Positions 36,650 to 60,140 of a DNA stretch of 64,000 nt are shown piece after piece. Made by a program: the position numbers and the translations under genes. The stretch spans positions 96,529-160,528 of the forward strand of contig JALVDV010000010.1 of NCBI GenBank assembly GCA_027008775.1, given 5' to 3'. This DNA comes from Candidatus Moraniibacteriota bacterium. Its GTDB lineage: Bacteria > Patescibacteriota > Minisyncoccia > Moranbacterales > DUUL01. The notes beneath the pieces are model-generated. The model saw only the letters and a program-made list of their open reading frames with translations, did no database searches and was not told the origin of the DNA. How positions within the stretch are numbered: position 1 is the first letter of the stretch; each line of letters starts with the position of its first letter.

Positions 36650-38404
36650 CTACACCACCCCTTTTTTCTTCATAAAGGCCAAGATACCAACGGTGATTAA
36701 GGTAGAGAAGAGAACCAAGAGAACAATGTTGGTGGCCAAACCGGTCTTGGGAGCGGAGCGACGGTAACCAAAGTCAGCCTTGGTGTGTTCGTCTTTTTCT
36801 TTGAGTTTAACAGAGGTTTGGTTGTCCAGTTTACCATCGGGGTCGTAGGTTGGAATTAGATTCTCAACATCTTTAACTACCACCCGATAATGTCCGGAGC
36901 AAAGATTCTTAATCTTGTAACGACCATGTTTGTCAGTGGTGTCACAGTATTTCTTGTTACCGCGAAAAGCGCAGACTTTAACATCAGAAATTCCTTCTTC
37001 AATATCTTCTTGAATACCGTTACCATTGGTGTCATACCAAATATAGTTGCCAATGGAAGATTGACAATCTTCTTCCTCTTCTTTTCTTTCTTCTTTGAGT
37101 TTGACGGTAACCTGATCAGAGTCGGTAATGGTTTTGGAACCAAGCTTGGCGGTAACCGTTACTTTGTTGGTGGTATCTTGGTTGATGACCACTGACTTGG
37201 TACAACTCATAGCTTCGCCAACATTCAAAGAAGTCTGGGGACAGGTGATGGTTCCCAATTGATCATCTTGAACTTGAATGTTGGTTAGTTTAGTGTCGCC
37301 GGTGTTAGTGATACGATAAGTGTAAGTGACTGTTTCTCCTTTTTTTACTTCAGTGGCGGAAGCGCTTTTTTCAACTCTAACGCCGGTGTTTTCTTTTTGA
37401 CAAACACTACTGCAACCATCGCCACTGACAGTGTTGCCGTCATCGCATTCTTCGGAGTCTTGTTTAAGGCCGTCTCCGCATTTACCTCCTTGAACAACTA
37501 CGTTTTTACAGTCACTGGAACAATAGGTACAAGAACTGTTGTAAGCCGGGGTACAAGTTTGGCCGTTGTTAGCGCCTTCATCGCATTGTTCGCCACTTTC
37601 TTTGGTGCCATTACCACAGTTGGGAGAAGGAGAAGTTTCTTTTTGACAAACACTACTACAACCATCGCCACTGACAGTGTTGCCGTCATCGCATTCTTCT
37701 CCGTCTTCCAAAACTCCGTTACCACATTGGGGAGAAGGAGTTTCATTAACTTTCTCCAAAAGCATACAAACGGGCTCAAAGCCGTGTTTGAACTTTACTC
37801 CCTTGGGTCCGGCGTGGACCACTTTGATTTGGCGCAAAGGAGAAGTTATTTGCAGAGCAGAGGAACCATAGTTAACAGCAGTGATTTTACCGGCTTCTTC
37901 CACGCCATCGGGCAGGTCTTCCGTTGTGCCGGAACGAACTCCGTTAAAGTCTATGTAGTACTGTTCGTGAGATTCATCAGCCGGGTTGGCTTGACTGCGA
38001 CCGACATAGCTGTCAAAGGATTCCAGATAAACGTTGTACTTGCCGGCGGGGATGGAGATTCCAGAAACAGTCTTTTCCCTGGGGAAATTGTGACCGTTTA
38101 AAACTCCGCCGTCGGAAACCATAATGTCACCATTGTACTTGATAAGGATATCCCCTTGTTTCTTGGTTTGCAGATGACAAACTCCGGAACAGTGATTGGC
38201 CAGATAAGTGGTGGTTTGGCGAAGGTCTTGGTTGAGAGAAGCAATCTTTTGGTTTTGCGACTGAAGGAGAACAGCGCCGAAAGCCAACAAAACAATCAGC
38301 AATAAAAAGATTCCTCCCACCAAGAGAGGTTTACGCCAAGACCATTGGTAACGAGAAGAACGGCGAGATCTTCTTGGACCACTGCTTTTTTTTCTTTGCA
38401 CCAT
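36650..38404 (-). CDS. Surface protein with Myxococcus-type Cys-rich repeats, a DUF11 domain, an SdrD-B-like domain and a C-terminal sortase-type sorting signal (copy A)
   Basis: An N-terminal TM/signal segment is followed by two CDDGNTVSGDGCSSVC repeats and then an SdrD-B-like domain. The C-terminus carries a sortase-type signal: SAPKTGLAT, a hydrophobic stretch, then KKKGVV. Confidence 0.7.
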   Translation of the reverse strand: MVQRKKSSGPRRSRRSSRYQWSWRKPLLVGGIFLLLIVLLAFGAVLLQSQNQKIASLNQDLRQTTTYLANHCSGVCHLQTKKQGDILIKYNGDIMVSDGGVLNGHNFPREKTVSGISIPAGKYNVYLESFDSYVGRSQANPADESHEQYYIDFNGVRSGTTEDLPDGVEEAGKITAVNYGSSALQITSPLRQIKVVHAGPKGVKFKHGFEPVCMLLEKVNETPSPQCGNGVLEDGEECDDGNTVSGDGCSSVCQKETSPSPNCGNGTKESGEQCDEGANNGQTCTPAYNSSCTYCSSDCKNVVVQGGKCGDGLKQDSEECDDGNTVSGDGCSSVCQKENTGVRVEKSASATEVKKGETVTYTYRITNTGDTKLTNIQVQDDQLGTITCPQTSLNVGEAMSCTKSVVINQDTTNKVTVTAKLGSKTITDSDQVTVKLKEERKEEEEDCQSSIGNYIWYDTNGNGIQEDIEEGISDVKVCAFRGNKKYCDTTDKHGRYKIKNLCSGHYRVVVKDVENLIPTYDPDGKLDNQTSVKLKEKDEHTKADFGYRRSAPKTGLATNIVLLVLFSTLITVGILAFMKKKGVV

Positions 38405-41503: not shown

Positions 41504-42583
41504 TTAAATATATTTTTCATCTTTCTTTTTCAGTTCTTTGATTATTTCTTTTACCTCCTGTGCTCTGGCTTTGGGGCAAACCAAAAGAGCGTTGTCGGTA
41601 TCAACAATAACCAGATCGTCAACTCCGATGGTGGCGATTATTTTGCCCCGGCGACCGTAAATCAAACTGCCGGAAGTGTCCAGGTTGAGACATTCTCCCT
41701 TGGTTAAATTACGCCTTTCGTCGGCCTGGGATAACAAATTTTCGTGCAGTGTGTCCCAAGTGCCGATGTCCTTCCAACCAAATTCACCTTTGATAATGAG
41801 CATATCTTTGGGATCAATTTTTTCCGTGATGGCGTAGTCAATAGAAATTTTTTCCATTTGACCGTATAATTCCCTGATTTTCTCCGGACGATTTTTTCCC
41901 TGCAATTCTTCTTTAATGGCTTGTAGAATTGTAAACGTTTGAGGTGTGTATTTTTCGTAAGCTTCCAGAAATTTACGCGGCGTCCACATATAGTAATTGG
42001 CGTGCCAAAGGTAGTTGCCCGATTTTAGATATTTTTGAGCGGTTTTAAAATCCGGTTTTTCGGTGTGTCCCAAAAATTCATAAAATTTCACGCCGTTTTT
42101 TTCCTCCAAGAGTTGACCGATCTTGGTGTAGCCCAGGGCGGTGTTTGGTTCAGTGGGAAAAATGGCGATGTCCAGCAGTTTGCCGGTTTGCTTAATCACC
42201 TCTTCGGCAGTGGCGATACTTTTCAGAAAATCGTCCACTCTGGCGATGTAGTGGTCGGAAGGAATGAAAGCCATCGGTTCGTCGGGATCAAGAAGGCTCA
42301 GTTTTAAAGCGTTAAAACCCATAGCCGGAGCGGTATCACGTCGTTCCGGTTCAATGATGATATTTTCCAAGGGAAAATCAGGCAGAATTTCTTTGACTTT
42401 TTCCGCGAGAGAAGCGGTGGTGGCGATAAATTTTTTGTCCGCCGGGTAATCTTTAAATCTGTCTAAAGTTTCTTCCAACATAGTTTTTTCGGAAGTGAGG
42501 CGACAGAATTGCTTGGGAATATCGGAACGACTCATCGGCCAAAGACGGGACCCGGAGCCACCGGCCAAAATAACTATTTTCAT
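41504..42583 (-). CDS. Mannose-1-phosphate guanylyltransferase-like NTP-transferase
   Basis: The N-terminal motif ILAGGSGSRLWP is present. Confidence 0.8.
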   Translation of the reverse strand: MKIVILAGGSGSRLWPMSRSDIPKQFCRLTSEKTMLEETLDRFKDYPADKKFIATTASLAEKVKEILPDFPLENIIIEPERRDTAPAMGFNALKLSLLDPDEPMAFIPSDHYIARVDDFLKSIATAEEVIKQTGKLLDIAIFPTEPNTALGYTKIGQLLEEKNGVKFYEFLGHTEKPDFKTAQKYLKSGNYLWHANYYMWTPRKFLEAYEKYTPQTFTILQAIKEELQGKNRPEKIRELYGQMEKISIDYAITEKIDPKDMLIIKGEFGWKDIGTWDTLHENLLSQADERRNLTKGECLNLDTSGSLIYGRRGKIIATIGVDDLVIVDTDNALLVCPKARAQEVKEIIKELKKKDEKYI

Positions 42584-42745: not shown

Positions 42746-43345
42746 TTATTTAATCTTTCTTCTCCCGACCAGGCCCAGGCCGGCGAGGCCTGAGCCGAAA
42801 AGGAGGATGGTCGCCGGCTCGGGCACCGGGGCTGGCGGGTTATCCACGGAAATCTCCGTTAGCTGGAGATTCCCGCACAAACCTCCGATGGCGACGACCA
42901 TGTCGTCGCGATCCCAGTCACTCCACCTGGAGGGCAGGTCCTCCAGGTGGATACTCCAGATTCCCGGAGCCGGCTGGTTCCAGAAAACGTGCTGGATTCC
43001 CTGGTCTTCGGGGGAATTCAACCGGGGATCGCTGTACCAGTCGTACAGCTCCCCAGAGGGGCTGTATGTTTGGAAATGGATTCCGAAAGACTGGAATCCA
43101 TCCCAATCATTGGCGGAGAAGGTCTGCCAGCTCCCGGGCTCGTCGCCCGCCTGGAGGACGGGCAACTGGTTTTGGGGATCGTCGGTTTTGTAGAAAAACA
43201 GTGACGATTCCCAGGATGCTTCTTCCTGGACGTCAACGACAAAAAGGCTGCCGTCCAGTTTGAAGATTGGGATTACCTGCGTGGCATTGGCCACACAGGT
43301 GAAAAAGAATAGAAAAAATAAAAATAAAAGTGGGATTTTTTTCAT
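42746..43345 (-). CDS. Secreted protein with a C-terminal PEP-CTERM sorting signal, strongly GC-shifted
   Basis: The signal peptide MKKIPLLFLFFLFFFTCVANA is AT-rich. The C-terminus reads VPEPATILLFGSGLAGLGLVGRRKIK, which is PEP, then a TM segment, then an RRK basic tail. Body codons end mostly in G or C. Confidence 0.75.
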   Translation of the reverse strand: MKKIPLLFLFFLFFFTCVANATQVIPIFKLDGSLFVVDVQEEASWESSLFFYKTDDPQNQLPVLQAGDEPGSWQTFSANDWDGFQSFGIHFQTYSPSGELYDWYSDPRLNSPEDQGIQHVFWNQPAPGIWSIHLEDLPSRWSDWDRDDMVVAIGGLCGNLQLTEISVDNPPAPVPEPATILLFGSGLAGLGLVGRRKIK

Positions 43346-43495: not shown

Positions 43496-43525
43496 ATTGT
43501 AAAACAGAAGTGGGTGACTGTCAAG
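43496..43525 (-). promoter_or_regulatory. Exact consensus promoter TTGACA-N17-TACAAT for the PEP-CTERM gene
   Basis: The exact hexamers with a 17-nt spacer read on the minus strand. They lie directly after a terminator hairpin at 43528..43557. Confidence 0.6.
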
Positions 43526-43527
43526 CA

Positions 43528-43557
43528 AACGCCGGGGGTTTGACTCCCGGCGTTTTA
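43528..43557. terminator. Terminator hairpin after the S74-domain gene
   Basis: The stem GCCGGG/CCCGGC is flanked by A/T runs. Confidence 0.55.
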
Positions 43558-43593: not shown

Positions 43594-44622
43594 TTATTTA
43601 TTTTCCAATTCAGCCACTTTAGCCTGCAAATCACGGATTTCCTTTTGTTGCTCTTTGACTGCTTCAATCAAAACTCCAACCAGACCGTCATAGTCAACTG
43701 TTTTGTAGCCATTGGGGCTCTCATTAACCAAGCTGGGGAAGTCTTTTTCAATTTCTTGAGCGATTACTCCGATATTTTTCTGGTCATTGCTTTTCAATTT
43801 ATACTCCACTCCGCGAATGTTCTCCAATCTCTGTAAAGCATTTTCCACTGTTTTGATGTCTTTTTTTAATCTAACATCAGAGCCCCGACGGAAATTGGCT
43901 GCCCAGACATCAGCAAATTGTCCTTTACCTTTACCAACTACCAAGCCGGCATTTCTGCTTCTGGATCCATCCACTCTAATCCCGATGGATCCGGCCAGGC
44001 TGGGAGCGTTGGGAGAAACATCAAAAGCGTAAATCCAGGGACCCCGGGTGTTATCAACTTTTTGATATTCACTGTTGTTAGTGACAGTGCCAATTCTAAA
44101 TTTGCCCTGAGAGACGAAAGTTTTACCAAAAATGTTAGCGTACTGGTTGTGACCGCGACCAACTACCAAAGCGCTATCCGGTCCTTGATTGCCAACGCGG
44201 ATACCGATGCTTCCGTTCATATTGCTCACGCCCGGCACTTGATTGATGGCATAAATCCAGGGTCCTCTCATCGCATCTATTCGGTTGTACCCGGCGGTGC
44301 TGTTAACCATTCCTATTTGCAGATACGGACCGGAGGCCTGGGCTCCTTGAGCATACAATCTGACAGCGCCGTTGGCAAAAATATTACCATTAGCCAACAA
44401 GGCTGTGCTTCGGTTACCGGCAACGTTAACGGCCAAACCGCCGTCTTTAGCTTGCCAAATTGGGCCGGTGTTTAAAGGCGCTTTCAAGTTACTGGCCGGG
44501 GGATTGGAAGATGGCTCCGTCCAATTGGTTGATTGGGCACTGGTTGATTGGACATAAACCAAGGCTGCCAAAGCAACAAGTCCCGTCGCAACCACCATTT
44601 TGAATTTACTATTCATTTTCAT
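43594..44622 (-). CDS. Secreted tail-fibre-like protein with a C-terminal peptidase S74 intramolecular-chaperone domain
   Basis: It has a signal peptide and two internal roughly 100-aa repeats. The C-terminus reads SDVRLKKDI…GVEYK…IGVIAQEIEKDFPSLV…VDYDGLVGVLIEAVKEQQKEIRDL, which matches the auto-cleaving chaperone of phage tail spikes. Confidence 0.7.
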   Translation of the reverse strand: MKMNSKFKMVVATGLVALAALVYVQSTSAQSTNWTEPSSNPPASNLKAPLNTGPIWQAKDGGLAVNVAGNRSTALLANGNIFANGAVRLYAQGAQASGPYLQIGMVNSTAGYNRIDAMRGPWIYAINQVPGVSNMNGSIGIRVGNQGPDSALVVGRGHNQYANIFGKTFVSQGKFRIGTVTNNSEYQKVDNTRGPWIYAFDVSPNAPSLAGSIGIRVDGSRSRNAGLVVGKGKGQFADVWAANFRRGSDVRLKKDIKTVENALQRLENIRGVEYKLKSNDQKNIGVIAQEIEKDFPSLVNESPNGYKTVDYDGLVGVLIEAVKEQQKEIRDLQAKVAELENK

Positions 44623-44686: not shown

Positions 44687-44974
44687 CTATTCTCCCATTA
44701 CCTGGGAAAGCTGATCTCTATTCATTTGAGTAACAGCCCCGTCCTGTCTGTTCATTATCTCCGAGAGTTTGTTGGCGTTGATTTTGGCCGGTTTAATATC
44801 GGAGGAATTTGATTTACTGCCCGAACCACCCAAGATGGCTGTTTTGGTAATGTCAAAATTAACTCCACTGGCGTTAATTAAATAAACCAAAAAGCCGGCC
44901 AGAATGAAAGATACCACCACCACAAAAGCTATGACCCTTACTTTCTCGGCTGATTTTTCCTTTTGTCTGTTCAT
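44687..44974 (-). CDS. Small single-TM protein
   Basis: It has an N-terminal TM anchor. Confidence 0.4.
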   Translation of the reverse strand: MNRQKEKSAEKVRVIAFVVVVSFILAGFLVYLINASGVNFDITKTAILGGSGSKSNSSDIKPAKINANKLSEIMNRQDGAVTQMNRDQLSQVMGE

Positions 44975-45019: not shown

Positions 45020-45874
45020 CTAGTTAACTTTAACCGGTAAACTCGTTTCCAAATTATGATAGTTGTATTTGACCTGGACATTTCCGTTACCCTTATTTTT
45101 GGCTTGAATAATCTTGTTAACCTCTCCCGCCAAATCAAAGGCTGAAGAATTTTCCGTCCAGGTGGCCAAACCGGTGACATCTAAACCGGAACAACTGTTT
45201 TTAGAAGCGGAAAGACAAGCTTTGAGGTTTTTATTATCGCCCTCACTCATCGTTAAGCTTGTGAGAGGATTGTTGTTGCCACAAGTATTTTCACAGATAA
45301 CCAAATTTTTGCCAAAAGAATCTATTCCACAGGCTTTGGCCTGACCGAAACTTACCCAACCAAGCTCATTAGACCAGGCGTAACCGGACAGTTTCCCGTG
45401 AGAATCCAGATGGACTCCGTAGTCTTGCCCGTTTGTAACTTTTCCCCTCATCTTTATCCAACCTCTCCAACCACCAGAATTGTTTATTTTTTCCTCTTGA
45501 GCGATGCCCACAATTCTGGCCCAACCGGTCAAATTGTTACCTTCTTTTCTTACCCCTCCTTTATCTCCATTGGGCGCGTTGCAATTGGCTTGGTAAGCGC
45601 TTCCACAATGCTCTTGGGGACTAAAGTCCACCCAGCCCAGATTGGAACTCCAGGCGTAACCGGTAATATTACCGTCACCGCTTGGTATTTTTAAATTATA
45701 AGAAATACTGCCGTTTTGGTTGGCATTGGTGGCGCTAATCCAACCAAAATTAGTGTTGCTGCCAGCCCAAAACCAACCGACAATATTATTGTCATTAGGG
45801 GCGGCTTTGACTAGAAAGGTAATTCCAATAATTGCCAAACTGAGCAGAGAACCGTAGATTATTTTTTTGAGCAT
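45020..45874 (-). CDS. Secreted protein with tandem G(Y/W)AWS…LGW(V/I)xF repeats
   Basis: A signal peptide is followed by at least three aromatic GW repeats and a Cys-rich C-terminal part. Confidence 0.5.
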   Translation of the reverse strand: MLKKIIYGSLLSLAIIGITFLVKAAPNDNNIVGWFWAGSNTNFGWISATNANQNGSISYNLKIPSGDGNITGYAWSSNLGWVDFSPQEHCGSAYQANCNAPNGDKGGVRKEGNNLTGWARIVGIAQEEKINNSGGWRGWIKMRGKVTNGQDYGVHLDSHGKLSGYAWSNELGWVSFGQAKACGIDSFGKNLVICENTCGNNNPLTSLTMSEGDNKNLKACLSASKNSCSGLDVTGLATWTENSSAFDLAGEVNKIIQAKNKGNGNVQVKYNYHNLETSLPVKVN

Positions 45875-46024
45875 ATTTTTGTTTTGAGATTTATTTTAAA
45901 AACCGTGATTGCTTTTGTCTCTATTTTAAGTCATAAAAAAAATCCTGTCAAAGTTTTCAGTGTTTCCTTGTGTTTGGATTATAGCATAACTTCTAATTCC
46001 TAACAACTTTAGTCAACCGGAAAA

Positions 46025-46465: not shown

Positions 46466-46556
46466 TGTTTTTACAGAATGATTTTTCAAAATTAATTCAT
46501 TGATTTTTCGCAAAATAAATTCTTCAAAATTGGAGATGGGAAAAATTTAAACAGAT

Positions 46557-47612
46557 TTACTCTCCTTTCAATCTGCCAACTATGTTGCCCAGCTCTTCCG
46601 GTGAATAATAATCAATGATTATTTTGCCATTTTCTTTGATTCCTCTGATTTTTACTTTGGTGTTGAAGAGTTCTGACAGTTCATTTTCAATATTTAAAAG
46701 GTCCGGATCAACATTTTTTTGAATGCGGAAAGTTTTTTTAAGTTTAACATTTTTAGCCACACCTTCCACTTCTCTGACATTTAAATCGTCCTTTAAGATT
46801 GACCGGAAAAGATCCATTTGTTTTTTTTCGTCACTGAGAGCCAAAATGGTACGCGCGTGCCCTTCGGAAATGACCCCTTCGGCCAAGGCTTGCTTGATTT
46901 TGGTCGGTAATTTTAAAAGACGGAGCGTGTTAGCCACGGCGCTGCGACTCTTGCCGACCTTTTGCGCGATTTCTTCTTGAGTCAAACCGAATTTTTCTTT
47001 CATCACTTGATAAGCCTCGGCTTCTTCAACAGGATTAAGGTTATGCCTTTGAATATTTTCTATTAAGGCCCATTCGGCTTTGTTTTCTTCGCTGGCCTCT
47101 TTGGTGACCACCGGCACGGTTTTTAAACCAGCCAGTTTGGCCGCTTCTAACCTTCTTTCGCCGGCAATGAGTTCAAAGCCTCCCTGCGAACGGTGGGTGA
47201 CAACCAGCGGTTGGATGATACCGTGTAGAGCGATGGAATCGGCCAATTCTTGCAATTTGGCTTTGTCAAAATTTTGTCGGGGTTGGTAGGGATTGGGGAA
47301 AATTTCTTCCACACCGACTTCCATAATACTTTTCAATCTGATTTTGGCGGAACCGCTGAGACTCGTTTTTGTTTGCTTTTCTTTTTGGGCGGATTTGGCA
47401 GAGGAAGTTTTGTTGGTAGCAGTCTTTTTTTGATTGTCTGTCTTTTGAAATGAGTTGGCGCCAAAATAGTTAACTTCGCCAACGGCGCCGGTTCCGGCAA
47501 AGGCTTTGCTGGTGCCGGCAGTATTTTGCTTTGTTCTTGCTTTGTTGTTTGTTTTGTTTTTGCGAGGAATTAAAGAAGACAAACCTCGTCCCAGACCTCC
47601 CGGTTTTGCCAT
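46557..47612 (-). CDS. parB: Chromosome partitioning protein ParB with a low-complexity N-terminal extension
   Basis: The ParB box (GERRLEAAKLAGL) and HTH are present. Confidence 0.9.
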   Translation of the reverse strand: MAKPGGLGRGLSSLIPRKNKTNNKARTKQNTAGTSKAFAGTGAVGEVNYFGANSFQKTDNQKKTATNKTSSAKSAQKEKQTKTSLSGSAKIRLKSIMEVGVEEIFPNPYQPRQNFDKAKLQELADSIALHGIIQPLVVTHRSQGGFELIAGERRLEAAKLAGLKTVPVVTKEASEENKAEWALIENIQRHNLNPVEEAEAYQVMKEKFGLTQEEIAQKVGKSRSAVANTLRLLKLPTKIKQALAEGVISEGHARTILALSDEKKQMDLFRSILKDDLNVREVEGVAKNVKLKKTFRIQKNVDPDLLNIENELSELFNTKVKIRGIKENGKIIIDYYSPEELGNIVGRLKGE

Positions 47613-47632: not shown

Positions 47633-48400
47633 TTACTGTTTACTTCTTTGGATGACTTCTTTGGCCAGTTGACGATAAGCTCGCGCCCCACTGTTGAAAG
47701 TGTCAAAATTGAGAATTGATTTGCCGAAACTGGGTGCTTCCGCCAAACGAACAGTACGAGGAATAACCGCCGAAAAAACTTTGTCGGGAAAATGTCGTCT
47801 AACTTCCTTAACCACCTGCTTGGCCAGCTTGTTCCGTTTGTCGTACATCGTCATCAATATTCCACCCAGGCGCAAAGAGGGTTGCAGATTTTGTTGAACC
47901 AAATCTATAGTGTTCAAAAGTTGACCCAAGCCTTCCAAAGCAAAGTATTCGGTTTGAACGGGAATAATCACTTCGTCGGCGGCCACCAGACCGTTGATGG
48001 TTAACAGACCCAAGCTGGGCGGAGAATCTATAATGATGAAGTCATAGAGATGTTTGACTGTTTCCAAAACTTTTTGTAGGCGATATTCCCTGTTTTCCAG
48101 TTCGGCCAATTCCACGGTGGCGCCGGCCAAATCCTGGTTGGCGGGCAAGATATGCTGATTTTCCGTTTCCGTTTGCAGGATCAAATCCAAGGGGTGAGCG
48201 TTCCCCAAAAGCGCTTCGTAAAGTCCGGCAGACAGATTGGGTACATCAACACCTAATCCACTGGAAGCGTTGGCTTGAGGATCAAGGTCAACTAAGAGCA
48301 CTTTTTGGCCTTCATCGGCCAAGTAGCTGGCCAAGTTGATGGCCGTGGTGGTTTTGCCCACTCCTCCTTTTTGATTGATTAGGGAAATGGTTTTGCCCAT
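47633..48400 (-). CDS. parA: Chromosome partitioning ATPase ParA/Soj
   Basis: The deviant Walker A motif KGGVGKTT is present. Confidence 0.92.
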
Positions 48401-48555
48401 AAAAATGACGACACTAAAAAAATTTAGAAAATTTTGTTCCGGGTTTCATTCTGCTTGTCACATTATACTAAAAAACAAAACACCGGGCAAACGAATCGGT
48501 TTTAGATATGAAAAAAGCGGAAGCTTCGGCTTCCGCTGAGAAACCATTTTTCCCC

Positions 48556-49032
48556 TCACCTCCTTGGTGGAGGTGGAGGTGGAGATGGAGATGGAGGGTG
48601 TCGCCTCATCGGTTGCCCCTGGTGATAATAAGGGGCGGAGCGCTGAGACGCCGATGCCGGCGGTGGAGGGGGCACCGCCTGCACCTGTGATGGACGAGGT
48701 GTTGGCGTTGGAGGAGGGGGTGAGATATACCTCGCCCGTTGCCCCTGCTGATAATAAGAGGCGGACCGGCGAGGTGTTGGCGCCGGAGGGGGCGCCGGGC
48801 GGGGGAAGCGCTCTTGGAGACAGACACGTTGTCCCCCTAGGTACACGCAAACCCGGCCGAAACGCCGGGTTGCGTACGCCCCGTGATTTTTCCCCCACAG
48901 CTGAAGGCTGTGGGAAGAAAATTTGAATCCCTTCCCCCGGAACTCCCAAAAAATACTTGGGAGTTCCCACTGGGCCAGAACCGGCCCAGTGGAAAAAATG
49001 AAAAAAATAAAAAATAAAAAAATTTTTTTCAT
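48556..49032 (-). CDS. Secreted proline-rich repeat protein, GC-shifted
   Basis: A strong SD (GAAGGAGGT) precedes the ATG. The signal peptide MKKIFLFFIFFIFSTGPVLAQ is AT-rich. The body is a Pro-rich tandem repeat of the form RSAxYYxQGQ…PPPP. Confidence 0.6.
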   Translation of the reverse strand: MKKIFLFFIFFIFSTGPVLAQWELPSIFWEFRGKGFKFSSHSLQLWGKNHGAYATRRFGRVCVYLGGQRVCLQERFPRPAPPPAPTPRRSASYYQQGQRARYISPPPPTPTPRPSQVQAVPPPPPASASQRSAPYYHQGQPMRRHPPSPSPPPPPPRR

Positions 49033-49101
49033 ACTACCTCCTTCGCCCCGATTACCGGGGCTCTAAATTTTTTTAATTTTATAAGGTACTCATCTGCCTT
49101 G

Positions 49102-49130
49102 ATTGTACAACATTTTTGGAAAAATGTCAA
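49102..49130 (-). promoter_or_regulatory. Exact consensus promoter TTGACA-N17-TACAAT for the Pro-rich protein gene
   Basis: Read on the minus strand, the 5'UTR then contains a GCCCCGG-taat-CGGGGC hairpin immediately before the SD. Confidence 0.6.
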
Positions 49131-49278
49131 TGGTTTAAAGAACTCGTCAGGCGCGATAAGGTGGCTTACGTTGGCTGAGCAACCCTCCCCGACCGGGGTT
49201 TTTGCTCGGCTTTTTCAGCTAGAAAAATACGTTCTAAGACTGGAAAATTCCAGCGCATTAGAAATGAAGTTGATAAAA

Positions 49279-49312
49279 ACAGCCCCGCTCGCGCGAGCGG
49301 GGCTGTTTTGCT
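49279..49312 (-). terminator. Terminator after rplL
   Basis: The hairpin AAAACAGCCCCGCTCGC-GCGAGCGGGGCTGTTTT is present. Confidence 0.8.
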
Positions 49313-49333
49313 GTGACGACAAATAAATTAGTT

Positions 49334-54993: not shown

Positions 54994-57900
54994 TTAGTAG
55001 GTTTCGCGGAAAGTATGAGGTCGACAAGGCGGACACTGCTTAACCTCATTGTGACAGCTTTTGCCGGTGGCCGATTTGTATTCCTTTTCTGACACTTGTA
55101 TGTAGGGAGCGTTGTTGGGGAAACATTTCTTGTCGTGTTTACGCGCTTGTTTTGTTATGATTACTCTTTCTCCACAATGTCCGTTACAGGCGCCAGGATT
55201 GATAGTTATACAACTATAGTCAAACTTCGGCACGCATTCGCAATTCTCATCTCCACCGGCTAAATCGTAGTAATCTTTAGGAACCAAGTTACCATAATTG
55301 ATATTGGTGTCTGTGAAACTACCGATATGTCTATTTGATTCTCCGGCTGTTCCACAGCGCCAGACATATTTTCCATCAATAAAGGCTAGACTATTAAAAT
55401 TTCCAAACCGACAGGCATCAGTTAATGATTTATATGGCGAGGACGTTGGATCATCATTACAAGCCGCCTTACTTTTAGCTCTACAAGTTGTTGTTTGCCC
55501 ATTTAAGCTACACTGCCAAGAATAACCTCCTTCATATTCTGATTGGTCGGTAAAATTAGAAACAACAGCATTTGCCGGTTGACATAATCCTTCCGAGTTT
55601 TCATTTAACTCATGAGTACCATAAGTCCCATCGGAAGCCGGGCCACAATCAACCCTTTGGGAGGCATGACATTCGGCATTTTTACCAGTTCCCCTGCCAA
55701 GGCATTGCCAGTTGGCCACGCCGTTAACAAATTCTGGATTAGTTGGCAATGGTTGCCCTGTGCTACAAAGTGGTTTACTAGGAGTAACAGCTGTTGACGG
55801 ATAATTGTTGCGACTAGCGCCAGGATTACAAACACCATCTGCATTGCAATTATCAACAGTGACTTCCCAAGAAAGCCGTCGAGCAGGTAAAATTATTGGC
55901 TGATCGTTAATTGCCTTCTGAGCAAGATTAAAGAAATCATCACTAGGTGACCACCAGTGAACCTTGACCGTTCCTTCTTTCTTTTCTGGATCCCAACTTT
56001 GCAGAGCATTTAAATCTCTGGCTGTTTGATAAGCGGTATATTCACGCCAAACTCCGTCACCGCATATTACCAGTACTTTTTCTCCAGAATCTTTAAAATG
56101 TTCAATACTCGTTGATTCGTAGTTTATTGCTGGGTTTCTTGGTATCCCAATATTTCTTAAACTAGATATCAATGACCAAATTTTGGCTTGAGTTTCACCA
56201 ATATGAGCCGTGACTCTTACTTTACCAGATTTTCCGGGTTGAGCTTGACAAATTAATCCATTACACTTCAAAATACTGTTGTCACTGGAAGTCAAATAAA
56301 CATTCGGTTTTTTAGCCGTCCAATAAATATAACCTTTGTTATAAGGGAAGGCTCCTTGTATTTCCAAGCTATTTCCGTAATCCGGGTGTTTTATATTACC
56401 TCCAAAACAGGAAGCATTTCTGTAATTATCACAAAATTTCCCAAAAGGAGTATCGTAAACATCACCAGCGCTGGTAAAAAACAGTTCCGGTTGATATCTA
56501 TAAGTCGCATTACCGTTACAAGATAAAACTGACTGTCCATTAATTTTGTGAGTTACTGTCACAATGTTATGGGCTATATAATAATAGGCTGGCTTCTGTT
56601 CTTTGACCAAGTTAGAATAATATCTGATGTGGAAATGGTTGATTGTGCTGGCTACACTTCCGCTGTAAGCCAAAGCTGGTTTGCCGGATGCAATTACGAG
56701 CAATCCTCCCGAAAACAGTAGCAAGAAAATAATTGTAAAATAGTTCTTCATTTTTTTAAGCAATAAAACCAAAATTATTATCAATACCGCTCCCAATACT
56801 ATCAGTATAACCGTTATAGTGTTTTTGCCTATGTTTTTGCTTCCCGCCAGACCTGTTTGCTGGCCGGATTTGGATTTCAATAATTTCCTGTCCAGTTCTA
56901 CCGAGTATTGATCCATTAGCATACCGGAAGAGTCCTTGAGCTGAGCGGTTAATTTTAAATAATCGTAGTCTTTTTTAGCCGGAAAACTTTTCTTAACAGC
57001 CTGCATTGCACCAGTGATATTTCCTTGGCGGAAAACCCTCGTTACCAAATGCCCCTCTTTATCTGTTAACTTCACTTCCACTGTTCCCACAAACCTATCT
57101 TTATTGGTATTGTGGAAACAAGTAAATAAGTCAGCTGTTTCTCCTTTTTTCAAGGGAAATTTCGTTAAACCGGGGTAATTTAATCTGCCCCAATTAATTC
57201 CTTCTGTGACTACCCTGGTATTGATAATTGTCTTAGTTCCCTCTGTCTCGGCAATTGTTTGCAAGTAGTAAACCGACTTATTGGCTGAGGGTATGGTGTA
57301 AGTAACTGTTTTTTGGGAATTTGCCGGCAACACTATCTCCTTTTCTTGATTGTCAACAAGGTCTTTTTCATTTAAGGCGTCCCAGAAATATAATTTTTGA
57401 GACAACTTAGCCTTGACCTCATGGCCTAAGGGATTGACAAGAGTTTGTTCAATAACCACTTTTGTTTCCGGCGCCACTTTGGGCCAATTGCCGATGTGGT
57501 TGTATTTTTCTCCGTTCACTTTTGTTGCCTCTCGCTGAAAGTGGATGTTGTTTTTGATGGTAGAAGAGACGGTAAATTCCGAGCTACCGCCGACAATTTC
57601 GTTAGTAAATGGCAAACCGGCCAAATTAAATTTTTTGCCGACAGAGAAAAAGAAATCAGCCCGATATCTGCCTTCGGCCAAATTGGTGGGAATCGCCCAT
57701 TTAAAAGCAACCTTTTGAGAGGAGTTTTTGTCTAGAACAAGATTTTTTTTGGCAATAAATTCATCAACAATATCATTGCCCTGTTGATCAAACTTATCGC
57801 TGACCTTGCTTATTCGGACAAAGAGATTGCCGTCAAAAATCGGGTATCTATTTTTATTAGTTAATTTTCCCTGAAAGGTTACTTTTTCCTCCGGTTGGTA

Positions 57901-58236
57901 TTGAAGTTTGTCCGGACTAAGATTGATGTCAACCGATTGAAACTTGTAGTATTGAAAACAATCTACTAAACCACTTTCACTTTTCTTTCTTTGTTCTTTT
58001 TTTAGAAAATGATTTTGGGGTGAAGAGACTTCTCCTTCAGCTGTTTTATTGCCAGAAAAATTACTTGTTCCCGATTTCCCGTTGGTAACTGTCGCTTGAG
58101 TTGTTCCTTCCGGCCCAGCCCATTCTAAGGGTAAGGCGGAATCAGAAGTGGCTAAAGCCTGCCCTATTCCCGTCAACCAGACAATTAAAAACACTGGCAA
58201 GAACAATAAAACTGATTTTGTGAATAGTTTGCGCAT
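54994..58236 (-). CDS. Large secreted protein (1080-aa ORF), probably two fused genes: a sortase-substrate domain followed by a signal peptide and a Cys-rich C-terminal domain
   Basis: It has an N-terminal signal peptide. An internal segment reads SGQQTGLAGS, a hydrophobic stretch, then LLLKK. This is followed at once by MKNYFTIIFLLLFSGGLLVIASG, which looks like a signal peptide. The junction sits on an A7 homopolymer at 56751-56757. Confidence 0.55.
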   Translation of the reverse strand: MRKLFTKSVLLFLPVFLIVWLTGIGQALATSDSALPLEWAGPEGTTQATVTNGKSGTSNFSGNKTAEGEVSSPQNHFLKKEQRKKSESGLVDCFQYYKFQSVDINLSPDKLQYQPEEKVTFQGKLTNKNRYPIFDGNLFVRISKVSDKFDQQGNDIVDEFIAKKNLVLDKNSSQKVAFKWAIPTNLAEGRYRADFFFSVGKKFNLAGLPFTNEIVGGSSEFTVSSTIKNNIHFQREATKVNGEKYNHIGNWPKVAPETKVVIEQTLVNPLGHEVKAKLSQKLYFWDALNEKDLVDNQEKEIVLPANSQKTVTYTIPSANKSVYYLQTIAETEGTKTIINTRVVTEGINWGRLNYPGLTKFPLKKGETADLFTCFHNTNKDRFVGTVEVKLTDKEGHLVTRVFRQGNITGAMQAVKKSFPAKKDYDYLKLTAQLKDSSGMLMDQYSVELDRKLLKSKSGQQTGLAGSKNIGKNTITVILIVLGAVLIIILVLLLKKMKNYFTIIFLLLFSGGLLVIASGKPALAYSGSVASTINHFHIRYYSNLVKEQKPAYYYIAHNIVTVTHKINGQSVLSCNGNATYRYQPELFFTSAGDVYDTPFGKFCDNYRNASCFGGNIKHPDYGNSLEIQGAFPYNKGYIYWTAKKPNVYLTSSDNSILKCNGLICQAQPGKSGKVRVTAHIGETQAKIWSLISSLRNIGIPRNPAINYESTSIEHFKDSGEKVLVICGDGVWREYTAYQTARDLNALQSWDPEKKEGTVKVHWWSPSDDFFNLAQKAINDQPIILPARRLSWEVTVDNCNADGVCNPGASRNNYPSTAVTPSKPLCSTGQPLPTNPEFVNGVANWQCLGRGTGKNAECHASQRVDCGPASDGTYGTHELNENSEGLCQPANAVVSNFTDQSEYEGGYSWQCSLNGQTTTCRAKSKAACNDDPTSSPYKSLTDACRFGNFNSLAFIDGKYVWRCGTAGESNRHIGSFTDTNINYGNLVPKDYYDLAGGDENCECVPKFDYSCITINPGACNGHCGERVIITKQARKHDKKCFPNNAPYIQVSEKEYKSATGKSCHNEVKQCPPCRPHTFRETY

Positions 58237-58298: not shown

Positions 58299-60053
58299 CT
58301 AAACCACCCCTTTTTTCTTCATAAAGGCCAAGATACCAACGGTGATTAAGGTAGAGAAGAGAACCAAGAGAACAATGTTGGTGGCCAAACCGGTCTTGGG
58401 AGCGGAGCGACGGTAACCAAAGTCAGCCTTGGTGTGTTCGTCTTTTTCTTTGAGTTTAACAGAGGTTTGGTTGTCCAGTTTACCATCGGGGTCGTAGGTT
58501 GGAATTAGATTCTCAACATCTTTAACTACCACCCGATAATGTCCGGAGCAAAGATTCTTAATCTTGTAACGACCATGTTTGTCAGTGGTGTCACAGTATT
58601 TCTTGTTACCGCGAAAAGCGCAGACTTTAACATCAGAAATTCCTTCTTCAATATCTTCTTGAATACCGTTACCATTGGTGTCATACCAAATATAGTTGCC
58701 AATGGAAGATTGACAATCTTCTTCCTCTTCTTTTCTTTCTTCTTTGAGTTTGACGGTAACCTGATCAGAGTCGGTAATGGTTTTGGAACCAAGCTTGGCG
58801 GTAACCGTTACTTTGTTGGTGGTATCTTGGTTGATGACCACTGACTTGGTACAACTCATAGCTTCGCCAACATTCAAAGAAGTCTGGGGACAGGTGATGG
58901 TTCCCAATTGATCATCTTGAACTTGAATGTTGGTTAGTTTAGTGTCGCCGGTGTTAGTGATACGATAAGTGTAAGTGACTGTTTCTCCTTTTTTTACTTC
59001 AGTGGCGGAAGCGCTTTTTTCAACTCTAACGCCGGTGTTTTCTTTTTGACAAACACTACTGCAACCATCGCCACTGACAGTGTTGCCGTCATCGCATTCT
59101 TCGGAGTCTTGTTTAAGGCCGTCTCCGCATTTACCTCCTTGAACAACTACGTTTTTACAGTCACTGGAACAATAGGTACAAGAACTGTTGTAAGCCGGGG
59201 TACAAGTTTGGCCGTTGTTAGCGCCTTCATCGCATTGTTCGCCACTTTCTTTGGTGCCATTACCACAGTTGGGAGAAGGAGAAGTTTCTTTTTGACAAAC
59301 ACTACTACAACCATCGCCACTGACAGTGTTGCCGTCATCGCATTCTTCTCCGTCTTCCAAAACTCCGTTACCACATTGGGGAGAAGGAGTTTCATTAACT
59401 TTCTCCAAAAGCATACAAACGGGCTCAAAGCCGTGTTTGAACTTTACTCCCTTGGGTCCGGCGTGGACCACTTTGATTTGGCGCAAAGGAGAAGTTATTT
59501 GCAGAGCAGAGGAACCATAGTTAACAGCAGTGATTTTACCGGCTTCTTCCACGCCATCGGGCAGGTCTTCCGTTGTGCCGGAACGAACTCCGTTAAAGTC
59601 TATGTAGTACTGTTCGTGAGATTCATCAGCCGGGTTGGCTTGACTGCGACCGACATAGCTGTCAAAGGATTCCAGATAAACGTTGTACTTGCCGGCGGGG
59701 ATGGAGATTCCAGAAACAGTCTTTTCCCTGGGGAAATTGTGACCGTTTAAAACTCCGCCGTCGGAAACCATAATGTCACCATTGTACTTGATAAGGATAT
59801 CCCCTTGTTTCTTGGTTTGCAGATGACAAACTCCGGAACAGTGATTGGCCAGATAAGTGGTGGTTTGGCGAAGGTTTTGGTTGAGAGAAGCAATCTTCTG
59901 GTTTTGCGACTGAAGGAGAACAGCGCCGAAAGCCAACAAAACAATCAGTAATAAAAAGATTCCTCCCACCAAGAGAGGCTTACGCCAAGACCATTGGTAA
60001 CGAGAAGAACGGCGAGATCTTCTTGGACCACTGCTTTTTTTTCTTTGCACCAT
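58299..60053 (-). CDS. Surface protein with Cys-rich repeats, DUF11, SdrD-B-like domain and C-terminal sorting signal (copy B)
   Basis: Starting from MVQRKK it is 584 aa and about 99% identical to copy A, with one D/N difference seen. Confidence 0.7.
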   Translation of the reverse strand: MVQRKKSSGPRRSRRSSRYQWSWRKPLLVGGIFLLLIVLLAFGAVLLQSQNQKIASLNQNLRQTTTYLANHCSGVCHLQTKKQGDILIKYNGDIMVSDGGVLNGHNFPREKTVSGISIPAGKYNVYLESFDSYVGRSQANPADESHEQYYIDFNGVRSGTTEDLPDGVEEAGKITAVNYGSSALQITSPLRQIKVVHAGPKGVKFKHGFEPVCMLLEKVNETPSPQCGNGVLEDGEECDDGNTVSGDGCSSVCQKETSPSPNCGNGTKESGEQCDEGANNGQTCTPAYNSSCTYCSSDCKNVVVQGGKCGDGLKQDSEECDDGNTVSGDGCSSVCQKENTGVRVEKSASATEVKKGETVTYTYRITNTGDTKLTNIQVQDDQLGTITCPQTSLNVGEAMSCTKSVVINQDTTNKVTVTAKLGSKTITDSDQVTVKLKEERKEEEEDCQSSIGNYIWYDTNGNGIQEDIEEGISDVKVCAFRGNKKYCDTTDKHGRYKIKNLCSGHYRVVVKDVENLIPTYDPDGKLDNQTSVKLKEKDEHTKADFGYRRSAPKTGLATNIVLLVLFSTLITVGILAFMKKKGVV

Positions 60054-60140
60054 GCTATTTGTTTTTATTTTTTTAAGGAAAAGCAAAAAGACAATTATTT
60101 CTTCGCTTAGATTGTAACACAAAAGGGAATTGGGGGCAAT
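58303..60140 (-). repeat. 1.84-kb direct repeat, copy B
   Basis: It is near-identical to 36654..38490 with one homopolymer indel. The upstream non-coding part is more diverged than the coding part. Confidence 0.95.

Follow-up and report, generated by a model that had tools for sequence, protein, structure and literature searches.

Does a gene whose product ends like a phage tail fibre, but which lies in the chromosome of a member of the ultra-small Patescibacteria, belong to the cell or to a phage, and what could such a protein be for? A large part of bacterial diversity belongs to the Patescibacteria (CPR), all of whose cultured members live attached to a host cell. What is known of how that host is recognised is largely limited to the type IV pili of a few Saccharibacteria (PMC12206443, PMC9894109). 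The 64-kb stretch of DNA analysed here (hereafter the window) carries a gene of this kind, which the initial annotation had described as encoding a cellular surface fibre with an S74 intramolecular chaperone domain. Our preferred reading, to which we give a probability of roughly 0.65, is that its product leaves the cell by the Sec route and forms a homotrimeric fibre at the surface, similar in design to the receptor-binding fibres of phages but owned and used by the cell, a member of the Patescibacteria and probably of the Moraniibacteriota. The features on which this reading draws are collected in Table 1.

Table 1. Features of the fibre locus in window coordinates; an arrow marks a predicted cleavage point.
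Feature	Position	Strand	Details
Gene A, 284-aa secreted protein	45020..45874	minus	Trp/Gly-rich beta-hairpin N-domain and C-terminal Ig-like domain
Promoter-like site upstream of gene A	45923..45951	minus	TTGACA-17-TAAAAT, 11/12, consensus scan only
Gene B, 95-aa bitopic membrane protein	44687..44974	minus	64 nt upstream of the fibre gene
Fibre gene (gene C)	43594..44622	minus	ORF, 342 aa, ATG start; signal peptide, constant N-module, two 75-aa repeats, S74 intramolecular chaperone
Predicted signal peptide, aa 1-29	44536..44622	minus	MKMNSKFKM-VVATGLVALAALVYV-QSTSA↓Q, heuristic
Constant N-terminal module, aa 33-80	44383..44526	minus	NWTEPSSNPPASNLKAPLNTGPIWQAKDGGL...; one local HMM match in the window, E 6e-14
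Body repeat 1, aa 98-172	44107..44331	minus	...GPWIYAINQ...GSIGIRVG...LVVGRG...
Body repeat 2, aa 173-247	43882..44106	minus	...GPWIYAFDV...GSIGIRVDG...LVVGKGKGQFADVWA
Peptidase_S74 / intramolecular chaperone, aa 248-342	43597..43881	minus	PF13884, 6f45_A alignment
Catalytic Ser248 codon	43879-43881	minus	
Lys253 codon	43864-43866	minus	
Predicted scissile bond			Gly247↓Ser248
Predicted C-terminal helix			aa ~322-341, low-confidence model
GC-rich hairpin, candidate cassette terminator	43527..43555	minus	40 nt after the fibre stop codon
Separate promoter-like site for the PEP-CTERM gene	43496-43524		after the terminator hairpin
PEP-CTERM protein	42746-43345		
DUF4215/DUF11/SdrD_B protein	36650-38404		

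A phage-like chaperone at the C-terminus

The open reading frame was recovered exactly as first annotated, and so was its most conspicuous part. A PF13884 HMM scan places the S74 domain at aa 248-299 (E 2.1e-15, 57.2 bits vs a gathering cutoff of 22), and aa 239-340 align to the distal subunit of the phage S16 long tail fibre (6f45_A, E 4e-8). The motifs by which the domain had originally been recognised, SDVRLKKDI, GVEYK and IGVIAQEIEKDFPSLV, are all present, and the auto-cleavage serine that was to be looked for can be placed at Ser248, in the SDxxxK dyad S248-D-V-R-L-K253. Both S248 and K253 are invariant in nine family members and conserved in 10/10 S74 ORFs linked to gene A (see below) and in S16 gp37. 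Their i/i+5 spacing is that of S911/K916 in endoNF and S587/K592 in MyRF, with cleavage N-terminal of the Ser (PMC8326128), and SDxxxK is also the motif of the mosaic adhesive trimers (MATs) of Bdellovibrio (PMC10769870). The last ~20 residues of the fibre (LIEAVKEQQKEIRDLQAKVAELENK) are predicted to be helical in a low-confidence model. From these sequence features we infer that the fibre would trimerise and cleave itself. An AF2 monomer model of the whole protein, built from a 9-sequence alignment, was unusable (pLDDT 40). Two further profile matches, to Enterotoxin_a in Pfam (E 0.2) and to SemD in NCBIfam (E 0.017, 14.7 bits vs a cutoff of 160), were set aside as noise.

A repeated body of narrow distribution

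The part of the protein that precedes the chaperone does contain two internal repeats, as initially proposed, with a unit of about 75 aa and not of 100. Repeats 1 and 2 share 41% identity over 70 aa (E 6e-20) when the two halves are compared directly, which is how they were found, a BLASTP self-comparison having given none. Relatives with a single repeat align to both copies, and the second is the copy kept in all nine family members. An exact look-up of the window protein returned no match, and we therefore worked with orthologues of 98% and 89% identity, next to a clade of 8 clusters. Searched alone, the body finds only 7 relatives in 5.8 billion proteins, 7/7 with S74; it has no PHROG match at E<=1, and a search of 2.9 M viral contigs gave no relative. 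Repeat 2 likewise has no relatives among solved structures, in PHROG or in the 147 other proteins that share the N-terminal module discussed below (0/147). The capping-loop motif NVGIGTxxPxxKL, sought as a regular expression, is found in 93 of those 147 proteins and once in the relative P0008, and it is absent from the window protein and from P0001-P0007, suggesting that the stalk of the window fibre and its closest relatives may not be a standard triple beta-helix.

An export signal and a constant N-terminal module

At the other end of the protein, the signal peptide first proposed remains plausible as a heuristic prediction, with a basic N-terminus, a hydrophobic core at aa 10-24 (Kyte-Doolittle 2.48) and TSA↓Q at aa 27-30. 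Its relatives have canonical AxA↓AW cleavage sites, and across 147 module proteins and relatives the -3/-1 positions before a conserved Trp read (V/A/I/L)-x-A, a signal peptidase I site. Signal-peptide-like N-termini were called by a heuristic predictor in 137/145 module proteins vs 8/107 proteins picked purely by similarity to the S74 chaperone; 14 of the 16 N-termini listed for the latter set lack an obvious hydrophobic leader, like those of phage fibres.

The mature N-terminus carries the pattern WTxPxxxPPxxN..AP[IL]N..Q.K.G.L (in the window fibre, WTEPxxNPPxxN..APLN..Q.K.GGL), a profile of which matched 4,143 representative protein clusters. Among the 150 best profile matches the module lies nearly always at aa ~28-80, while the C-termini of module proteins vary and are adhesin-like: S74 is found in 13 of the 147 best matches (~9%), and other tips include fn3, Gp10_C, T7 tail fibre, Gp53-like_C, YadA head, Kelch, PA14, Laminin_G_3 and Shufflon_N. 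Judged by this profile, the fibre gene belongs to a very large family in the Patescibacteria, which is defined by its constant N-module. The module was not found in the 2.9 M viral contigs, in a search of limited sensitivity that used short patterns with tblastn confirmation over 44-50 aa.

A cellular gene in a housekeeping chromosome

Scanning the flanks for phage genes showed the window to be housekeeping chromosome. The Pfam scan of 56 ORFs over the 64 kb found no capsid, portal, terminase or tail genes, and no tRNA or att-like repeats lie near the fibre gene. The neighbourhood includes secreted and surface proteins, in line with the initial annotation: the PEP-CTERM protein, gene A, the gene B membrane protein, the DUF4215/DUF11/SdrD_B protein and SecA. 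A mobile island was ruled out by the lack of structural genes, tRNAs and flanking repeats. The same holds for a foreign origin inferred from base composition, given that the GC and GC3 of the gene fall inside the range of its housekeeping neighbours. Indeed, although the gene was correctly reported to be intermediate in GC (0.463) between the window (0.404) and the PEP-CTERM gene (0.55), this is uninformative because ParA (0.473), SecA (0.43) and gene A (0.433) have similar values. The excess sits in the Gly/Ala/Pro-rich body (0.495), and the chaperone part has a GC of 0.378.

One could nevertheless suppose that an orphan phage tail-fibre gene was left behind in the chromosome, given the matches of the fibre to 1,288 phage genomes and to 39 PHROG families of tail fibres and baseplates, those of tail fibres down to E 3e-31 in its C-terminal part. 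We consider such a prophage remnant very improbable. The phage similarity is limited to the last ~100 aa (essentially only aa ~240-342 are matched, and no record spans >=80% of the query), and the body without PHROG match is preceded by a predicted signal peptide. Furthermore, neither the body nor the N-module nor gene A is found on the 2.9 M viral contigs, related loci are likewise housekeeping, and the gene keeps its synteny with cellular partner genes across divergent genomes. Finally, its dN/dS is 0.045, with 140 synonymous substitutions. The housekeeping window, the body without phage relatives and this low dN/dS together make it a functional cellular gene. The original preference for a cellular surface fibre over a prophage remnant is thus supported by context, leader, phage-free body, synteny and dN/dS, and we infer its location at the surface.

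More improbable still is that the fibre serves a phage-tail-like nanomachine (eCIS or tailocin) whose genes lie in another part of the genome. PF13884 genes are known as 'shell' parts of some eCIS operons, in which they may replace Afp13 fibres (PMC8213781), but the window holds no eCIS or tailocin genes, sheath, tube, baseplate and spike genes are missing both from it and from the related loci examined, and eCIS particles assemble in the cytoplasm, so that a Sec signal peptide would be unexpected.

If the gene belongs to the cell, its product could also be exported for purposes other than adhesion, for example as a structural fibre associated with the envelope or S-layer, a lectin or enzyme that is secreted, or a phage-binding decoy. 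Compatible with this are the 75-aa repeat, which has no known relatives or function, the neighbouring genes for other envelope and surface proteins, and the synonymous divergence of the fibre gene (dS 1.29, vs 0.22 for the adjacent ManC gene), a pattern typical for any kind of surface locus that exchanges alleles or is under balancing selection. On the other hand, across the family the module comes with tips that can be recognised as binding or adhesin domains, and apart from MyRF the characterised S74-capped proteins are all receptor-binding fibres or spikes. We therefore regard a non-adhesive role as improbable.

A three-gene cassette

The fibre gene is the last in a cassette of the order gene A, gene B, fibre, with gaps of 45 nt between A and B and of 64 nt between B and the fibre gene. 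This cassette is found at the same locus in L001, L002 and L076 and at differing housekeeping loci in L003, L004, L007 and L008. The promoter-like site in front of gene A is, by its sequence, a candidate promoter of an A-B-fibre operon. Downstream, the hairpin that follows the fibre gene folds with a dG of -22.8 kcal/mol (z -5.2), and 0/200 shuffles were as stable. We considered and ruled out the PEP-CTERM gene as a part of the cassette, as it has its own promoter-like site past the hairpin and joins the cassette only in the closest strains.

Gene A homologues lie directly upstream of fibre genes in L003, L007 and L008 (E 1e-55 to 1e-75). The N-domain of the protein (aa ~30-181) carries the motifs GYAWSxxxGWIxF, GWARIV and SGGWxGWIKM, and no Pfam family covers it among 55 members; in an AF2 model of pLDDT 81, only the Ig-like domain (aa ~190-283) matches PDB or viral folds. 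No gene A was found in the 2.9 M viral contigs, and the 66 gene A loci in species genomes are mostly labelled Patescibacteria. Gene B encodes a protein with a basic N-terminus, a transmembrane segment at aa 14-32 (Kyte-Doolittle 2.97) and a hydrophilic tail. Its orthologue in L001 is 97% identical, with a dN/dS of 0.05-0.06, and the window copy has no BLAST match to those of L003, L007 and L008. At the same position, small transmembrane proteins with acidic or Gln-rich repeats are found in at least 11 diverse loci, in addition to L077 and L080; gene B is therefore conserved across clades by position and architecture only.

Linkage to gene A and to type IV pili

The association of gene A with module proteins extends well beyond the window. 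Module ORFs number 40, in 32/66 gene A loci, and 39 of them have a known placement relative to gene A: 38 share its strand and 36 lie within 1.5 kb. These counts carry an ascertainment bias, as the loci were picked through gene A. A reverse test was possible for two proteins with module and S74 that had been found independently of gene A (n=2). The first follows a gene A homologue at a distance of 4 nt and has a gene B-like gene ~2 kb upstream; the second is directly preceded by a gene B-like gene, with no gene A in its available sequence.

Type IV pilus genes lie within 6 kb in 25/66 gene A loci, and 19 of these 25 have at least two kinds (the labels were checked as T2SSE, T2SSF, Peptidase_A24 and N_methyl). 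A pilus gene lies within 300 nt of gene A in 16/66 loci, mostly PilD (prepilin peptidase) or a prepilin, and 23/24 are on the same strand. For example, L029 reads PilB-PilT-PilC-pilin-pilin-gene A-PilD-pilin x4, L032 reads gene A-module+S74 fibre-?-gene A-PilB-PilC-pilins and L023 reads gene A-S74 fibre-?-?-PilB; among loci with S74, 4/10 have pilus genes.

These observations raise the possibility that a type IV pilus carries or primes the same self-cleaving fibre, or drives it through the envelope. The fibre would then be either a T2SS-like substrate or an adhesin like PilY1, at the pilus tip or as an accessory, and gene A would serve as a pilus-associated adaptor in place of a static surface anchor. 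Besides the pilus genes near gene A, this draws on two module proteins with Shufflon_N, a pilus-tip adhesin domain, on PilX2, a non-prepilin protein proposed as the pilus adhesin of Saccharibacteria (PMC12206443), and on an interplay with type IV pili that is also raised for MATs (PMC10769870). We think this unlikely for the window fibre, while giving it some weight. No T2SSE, T2SSF, A24 or N_methyl genes are present in the 64-kb window, and the cassette loci of the closest relatives are likewise without pilus genes. No prepilin leader (G↓FTLIE) was found in the fibre, whose predicted leader is of the signal peptidase I type. Furthermore, the link is indirect, running from fibre to gene A and from gene A to the pilus, and the 25/66 is a raw frequency among gene A loci.

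A proposed mechanism

We return to the surface fibre owned by the cell. In this model, the A-B-fibre operon would be transcribed and the 342-aa precursor exported, with signal peptidase I taking off aa 1-29. The S74 domain (aa 248-342) would trimerise via its terminal helix and chaperone the folding of the preceding body, after which the Ser248/Lys253 dyad would cut at its predicted bond, freeing the 95-aa chaperone and leaving a mature fibre of ~218 aa. The second 'GPWIYAF' repeat of 75 aa would then become the distal end, that is, the C-terminal tip. The constant N-module may dock the fibre on a conserved partner at the cell surface, most likely the gene A protein and/or the gene B product, while the variable distal part would bind a ligand on another cell. 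Export, docking partner and a function as host-binding adhesin are putative steps, suggested by the leader, the cassette and the tips of the family.

Comparison with known systems

The closest precedent of the window fibre is the MAT family of Bdellovibrio bacteriovorus, namely its S74 subgroup with Bd3182 as an example (Caulton et al. 2024, PMC10769870). Both are encoded in the chromosome of a bacterium that depends on a host or on prey, and not by a phage. As in the Patescibacteria fibres, a signal peptide is followed by a family-wide constant N-terminal domain, which is proposed to bind the surface of the producer. Both families have variable tips and fall into S74 and non-S74 subgroups (13/8 in Bdellovibrio, vs S74 in 13/147 of the best module matches), and the SDxxxK dyad is shared, with S782A blocking cleavage in Bd3182. 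The capping loop is a further likeness to P0008 and the 93/147 module proteins that have it, the window fibre being without. The differences are equally clear. The constant domain of MATs is beta-rich and of ~130 aa, whereas the module WTxPxxxPPxGN..AP[IL]N has ~45-50 aa; phylum and envelope differ, as does length (>900 aa vs 342 aa). The tip of the window fibre is a 75-aa tandem repeat specific to its clade. Unlike MATs as described in that study, it also has conserved partner genes A and B and, in other species, a setting in type IV pilus operons.

Phage fibres and spikes with an S74/CIMCD domain (K1F endosialidase, 3GW6; T5 pb1, 4UW8; S16 gp37, 6F45) share with the window fibre the homologous C-terminal ~95 aa, the Ser-Lys dyad and a predicted helical end, but they have no signal peptides, are encoded among virion genes and offer no counterpart to the sequence upstream of aa ~240. 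The ICA domain of MyRF (PMC8326128) sets a cellular, non-viral precedent for an S74 switch that trimerises and then cleaves, with S587/K592 at the same spacing. MyRF is, however, an ER-membrane transcription factor in which cleavage frees a DNA-binding trimer, and it has no similarity outside this domain. Finally, PilY1 (Pseudomonas, Myxococcus) and PilX2 (Saccharibacteria TM7x, PMC12206443) are non-prepilin secreted proteins that confer binding specificity from within pilin operons, where gene A is similarly placed in 16/66 species. They differ in being beta-propellers without sequence or fold similarity, the window has no pilus genes, and any fibre-pilus association would be indirect.

Significance

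In the literature searched, we found no paper that joins S74/PF13884 or tail fibres with Patescibacteria, CPR or type IV pili, and tail fibres go unmentioned in the Cell 2023 paper on Patescibacteria genetics. The family of fibres with a constant N-terminus and swappable tips is, within that literature, undescribed. It is a large candidate family, in which 4,143 N-module clusters with receptor-binding-like tips go together with an unannotated partner that often lies inside pilus operons, and its fibres may be a way in which host-dependent bacteria grip other cells. Even under the conservative reading, the automatic annotation of such CPR genes as 'phage tail fibre' needs correction.

A broader and rather doubtful extension would be that N-module fibres, gene A and gene B form a host-recognition apparatus across the Patescibacteria, functionally coupled to type IV pili and fitted with swappable phage-like tips that set the range of hosts open to these obligate episymbionts. 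Such an apparatus would amount to a cellular equivalent of the receptor-binding-protein systems of phages; the S74 chaperone would then probably be phage-derived, and the allele exchange suggested by a dS of 1.29 vs 0.22 would drive changes in host range. If these are indeed host-binding fibres, their tips would be predictors of host range that can be read from sequence, and S74 self-cleavage offers a simple biochemical assay. Taken together with the MATs of Bdellovibrio, this would, if true, mean that bacteria living on bacteria have repeatedly taken up the receptor-binding architecture of phages.

A probable secreted fibre with a predicted self-processing chaperone

The protein encoded by the third gene of the cassette carries at its C-terminus the intramolecular chaperone that the initial annotation had recognised: Peptidase_S74 (PF13884, 'chaperone of endosialidase') scored 57.2 bits over residues 248-299 (gathering score 22), residues 239-340 aligned with the solved structure 6f45_A, the distal subunit of the long tail fibre of Salmonella phage S16 (E 4e-8), and 39 PHROG tail-fibre or baseplate families matched the C-terminal third. 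The signal peptide described earlier is likewise predicted, with a basic N-terminal segment, a core of 15 hydrophobic residues and a cleavage site made up of small residues, between TSA and Q after residue 29. Of the two internal 100-aa repeats, the number stood but the length did not: residues 98-172 and 173-247 align with 41% identity over 70 aa (E 6e-20), so that each repeat spans about 75 aa, and a profile of the repeat found no relative among solved structures. The GC content, described as intermediate, does lie at 0.463 between the window (0.404) and the neighbouring PEP-CTERM gene (0.55), but this is uninformative because housekeeping neighbours have similar values (ParA 0.473, SecA 0.43). 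Overall, the original observation on the fibre gene is confirmed.

In endoNF and MyRF, the S74 domain cleaves itself via a Ser-Lys dyad (S911/K916 and S587/K592, respectively), cutting the bond directly N-terminal of the serine and only after trimer formation (PMC8326128). Bdellovibrio Bd3182 has the same SDxxxK motif and its processing is blocked by S782A (PMC10769870). The motif in our fibre is S248-D-V-R-L-K253; both dyad residues are invariant in 9/9 close-family members, and the dyad is also kept in all ten S74 ORFs adjoining gene A in other phyla. As the dyad matches those of the three proteins above and is conserved, we infer by homology a cut between G247 and S248, which would yield a mature fibre of 218 aa (Q30-G247) and a released chaperone of 95 aa. 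The AF2 monomer model of the fibre was unusable (pLDDT 40).

A chromosomal gene rather than a prophage remnant

A prophage origin would sit well with the 1,288 records among 50,697 phage genomes that match the fibre; these matches are, however, essentially to the chaperone domain, and no record covers 80% or more of the protein. With chaperone and signal peptide removed, the fibre body (residues 31-247) retrieved only seven clusters among 5.8 billion, all with S74, and it had no relative on 2.9 million viral contigs; residues 33-247 had no PHROG match at E<=1. Pfam scanning of 56 ORFs across the 64 kb found a bacterial core chromosome (tmRNA, IF3, RF1, SecD/SecF, SMC, ClpP, trigger factor, NusA, RecA, RodZ, RecO, an aminoacyl-tRNA synthetase, RNase Y, phosphoglycerate mutase, aldolase, triosephosphate isomerase, SecA, a mannose-1-phosphate guanylyltransferase-like enzyme, RNase H, ParB, ParA, L7/L12, L10, TruB and leucyl aminopeptidase) and no capsid, portal, terminase, tail tube, sheath or baseplate gene, in agreement with the earlier remark on the flanks. 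The nearest tRNA is about 34 kb away, and no meaningful repeats flank the cassette. Some eCIS operons likewise include S74 genes (PMC8213781); the window contains no such operon.

The gene is under strong purifying selection: compared with its 89%-identical orthologue in the related locus L076, it shows 140 synonymous and 44 non-synonymous differences (dN/dS 0.045), with both body and chaperone part constrained. A signal-peptide-like N-terminus was found in only 8 of 107 S74 proteins retrieved purely by chaperone similarity, and 14 of 16 N-termini inspected began as phage fibres do (MA..., MPTQVQFRRGT... and the like) and lacked an evident hydrophobic leader; the predicted signal peptide sets the window fibre apart from phage fibres. 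Taken together, the lack of phage structural genes in 64 kb, the body without phage relatives, the low dN/dS and the predicted signal peptide led us to reject a prophage remnant, and with the housekeeping context they support the host surface fibre favoured at the outset.

A conserved cassette with two partner genes

Orthologues in the related contigs L001 and L002 (98% identity) and L076 occupy the same genomic place as in the window. More distant relatives (38-68% identity) lie in different housekeeping neighbourhoods: between GroES and S6-SSB-S18 (L003, L004, L008), near Lon/Mg-chelatase-like genes (L007) or upstream of SMC (L006). Wherever upstream sequence exists, genes A and B precede the fibre gene on the same strand. 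In at least 11 diverse loci, the place between gene A and the fibre gene is taken by a small bitopic membrane protein whose repetitive tail is acidic or rich in Gln. The window cassette (see table) has gaps of 45 nt (A-B) and 64 nt (B-fibre), a near-consensus promoter-like site upstream of gene A and a stable hairpin 3' of the fibre stop codon (dG -22.8 kcal/mol, z -5.2). As this hairpin, followed by a separate promoter-like site, stands between the fibre and the PEP-CTERM gene, the latter was ruled out as a cassette member and is a mere neighbour. One relative, L008, has two S74 fibre genes in tandem (1926-3549), the second of which (P0005) keeps the 75-aa repeat and S74 and lacks the WTxP module, with a different N-terminal region after the leader.

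Features of the window and their positions
Feature	Position	Strand	Basis
tmRNA gene, predicted tag peptide ANLKTRVKTALANLFAKPSFAAAVA	28-430	+	
DUF4215 + DUF7507/DUF11 + SdrD_B surface-protein gene, first paralogue	36650-38404	-	Pfam
ManC-like gene	41504-42583		
PEP-CTERM gene	42746-43345	-	
Fibre ORF, 342 codons	43594-44622	-	ORF scan of window
Gene B, one N-terminal transmembrane helix, 95-142 aa across loci	44687-44974	-	
Gene A, secreted protein, 284-429 aa across loci	45020-45874	-	mutual homology E 1e-55 to 1e-108
Place of the missing MNT/HEPN-like pair	46513-46557		
GC-richest kilobase	48400-49330		
Scanned ORF within it	48458-48970		
Unannotated 1080-aa gene, following second DUF4215 paralogue	54994-58236	-	
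DUF4215 + DUF7507/DUF11 + SdrD_B surface-protein gene, second paralogue	58299-60152	-	Pfam
AT-rich window end	60388-63958		

Gene A has an informative name in no source, and its N-terminal ~150 aa gave no Pfam domain in any of 55 members scanned. Its confident AF2 model (pLDDT 81) consists of Trp/Gly-rich beta-hairpins (GYAWSxxxGWIxF, GWARIV, SGGWxGWIKM) followed by an Ig-like domain; Foldseek searches of PDB and of viral models matched this domain alone. When the gene A profile was run over one genome per species, 66 loci were recovered. Most bear a Patescibacteria label (Moranii-, Paceibacterota, Nomura-, Wolfe-, Vogel-, Colwell-, Terrybacteria and others), and a few are co-assembly MAGs recorded under other taxonomic labels; the closest are Candidatus Moraniibacteriota, and no relatives were found on viral contigs. 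Most homologues (P0130-P0182) end in a conserved tail, [W/I]xE[V/T/I]xP-COOH or PxFxE[F/I/N/Q]-COOH, with no transmembrane helix after it, which may be an undescribed sorting or docking tag. An unrelated 258-aa secreted protein in the locus L080 shares this tail; the L080 stretches concerned are 2359-3135 and 4375-5613. The window gene A lacks the tail and ends LPVKVN.

After gene A and fibres, the commonest neighbours in ORF clustering of the 66 loci are prepilins, PilB/PilT ATPases, PilC and the prepilin peptidase PilD, as checked with Pfam (N_methyl, T2SSE, T2SSF, Peptidase_A24). As raw counts from loci selected by gene A, type IV pilus genes lie within 6 kb of gene A in 25/66 loci and within 300 nt in 16/66, with 23/24 on the same strand. 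Gene orders include PilB-PilT-PilC-pilin-pilin-geneA-PilD-pilin x4 (L029) and geneA-module+S74 fibre-?-geneA-PilB-PilC-pilins (L032). For the window fibre this link is indirect, because no pilus genes lie near it or in the loci of its close relatives. Another Patescibacteria locus, L023, has a thrombospondin type 1 ORF (TSP1_ADAMTS, 8167-8763), unusual for bacteria, between a gene A/S74-fibre pair and PilB.

A constant N-terminus with interchangeable tips

ORFs beside gene A in the 66 loci repeatedly match the fibre at its N-terminal end, outside the repeats. In their alignment a shared signal peptide is followed by an N-module, A-W-T-x-P-x-x-x-P-P-x-G-N-x-x-A-P-[IL]-N-x-x-x-x-x-Q-x-K-x-G-x-L. 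An HMM of the module finds a single ORF in the 64-kb window, that of the fibre; in the gene A loci it finds 40 ORFs, spread over 32 of the 66 and including 8 of their 10 S74 ORFs. Of 39 placeable ORFs, 38 are on the gene A strand and 36 within 1.5 kb of gene A. In an exhaustive HMMER search covering 1.84 billion cluster representatives, 4,143 proteins carried the module at E<=1e-3. Among the best 150 of these it lies nearly always at residues ~28-80, and since a signal peptidase I site ((V/A/I/L)-x-A at -3/-1) directly precedes its Trp, it is the predicted mature N-terminus. Leaving out three proteins of the fibre's own clade, 147 of those best 150 were new: 13 end in S74, 93 have the strict capping-loop motif NVGIGTxxPxxKL, and none has the GPWIYAF repeat of the window clade. 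Other C-termini among the 147 include fn3, T4 Gp10_C, Gp53-like_C, T7 tail fibre, YadA head, Kelch propeller, PA14, Laminin_G_3 and Shufflon_N. The module had no relatives on viral contigs. By analogy, receptor-binding proteins that dock onto a fixed partner are built in this way, with a constant N-terminus and binding tips that can be exchanged.

In a test not starting from gene A, only two of 112 S74-similarity matches carried the module. For one of them (P0009), a gene A homologue (E 1e-21) lies 4 nt upstream of its gene, and a gene B-like gene is found some 2 kb upstream. For the other (P0011), the preceding gene is gene B-like, in a neighbourhood of SmpB, IF3, L35 and L20, and the available sequence contains no gene A.

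Other features of the locus

The PEP-CTERM gene is of a kind that would not be expected in a genome of Patescibacteria. Its composition stands out strongly (GC3 0.69) and it evolves fast, with 70% identity to its L001 orthologue against 96-98% for flanking genes (dN/dS 0.14-0.24); no exosortase was found among the Pfam-scanned ORFs of the window. Compared with L076, dS is 1.29 for the fibre gene, 0.87 for gene B and 0.77 for the PEP-CTERM gene, far above the 0.22 of the adjacent ManC-like gene; this points to exchange of alleles, or to a balanced polymorphism of long standing, in this group of surface-protein genes. In L001 the SecA-adjacent DUF4215 copy is followed directly by the 1080-aa gene, which points to duplication or rearrangement at the DUF4215 paralogues in the window genome. 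The window end (27-32% GC) encodes DUF4238, a DpnD/PcfM-like protein and a fragment of a restriction enzyme that is DpnI-like (Dam-replacing family); together they probably make up a small islet for restriction or defence. The 98%-related strains have, between ParB and RNase H, a Polbeta nucleotidyltransferase and NTase_sub_bind pair (MNT/HEPN-like toxin-antitoxin; L001 4164-4866, L002 2552-3254) that is missing from the window. The GC-richest kilobase (0.527), between ParA and L7/L12, holds overlapping ORFs alone; its scanned ORF had no Pfam match, the stretch no Rfam match and the orthologous L001 stretch no called gene.

Relation to known fibres and implications

The closest precedent, by analogy, is the MAT family of Bdellovibrio. 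Its description (PMC10769870) reports 21 trimeric fibres, encoded on the chromosome and carried on the surface of the predator. Each begins with a signal peptide and then a constant N-terminal domain, for which no partner is named; 13 end in S74 and 8 do not, the tips are diverse, a capping-loop motif is shared with MyRF, and a possible interplay with type IV pili is raised. Judged against that description, the Patescibacteria family follows the same fibre logic in another lineage dependent on other cells, but its constant module is different and shorter, it has conserved partner genes A and B, and it is embedded in pilus operons in species other than that of the window; the window clade, moreover, lacks the canonical capping-loop motif and has a novel 75-aa tandem repeat as its predicted tip. 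Our literature search found no paper joining S74 or tail-fibre-like proteins to Patescibacteria or their pili.

The window protein is best read, from its sequence features, as an exported, self-processing surface fibre that would work with genes A and B and is probably trimeric. A pilus-coupled host-range apparatus with exchangeable tips is a tentative extension that we consider rather doubtful. The fibre belongs to a very large family of modular build, which may mediate cell-cell recognition in Patescibacteria.
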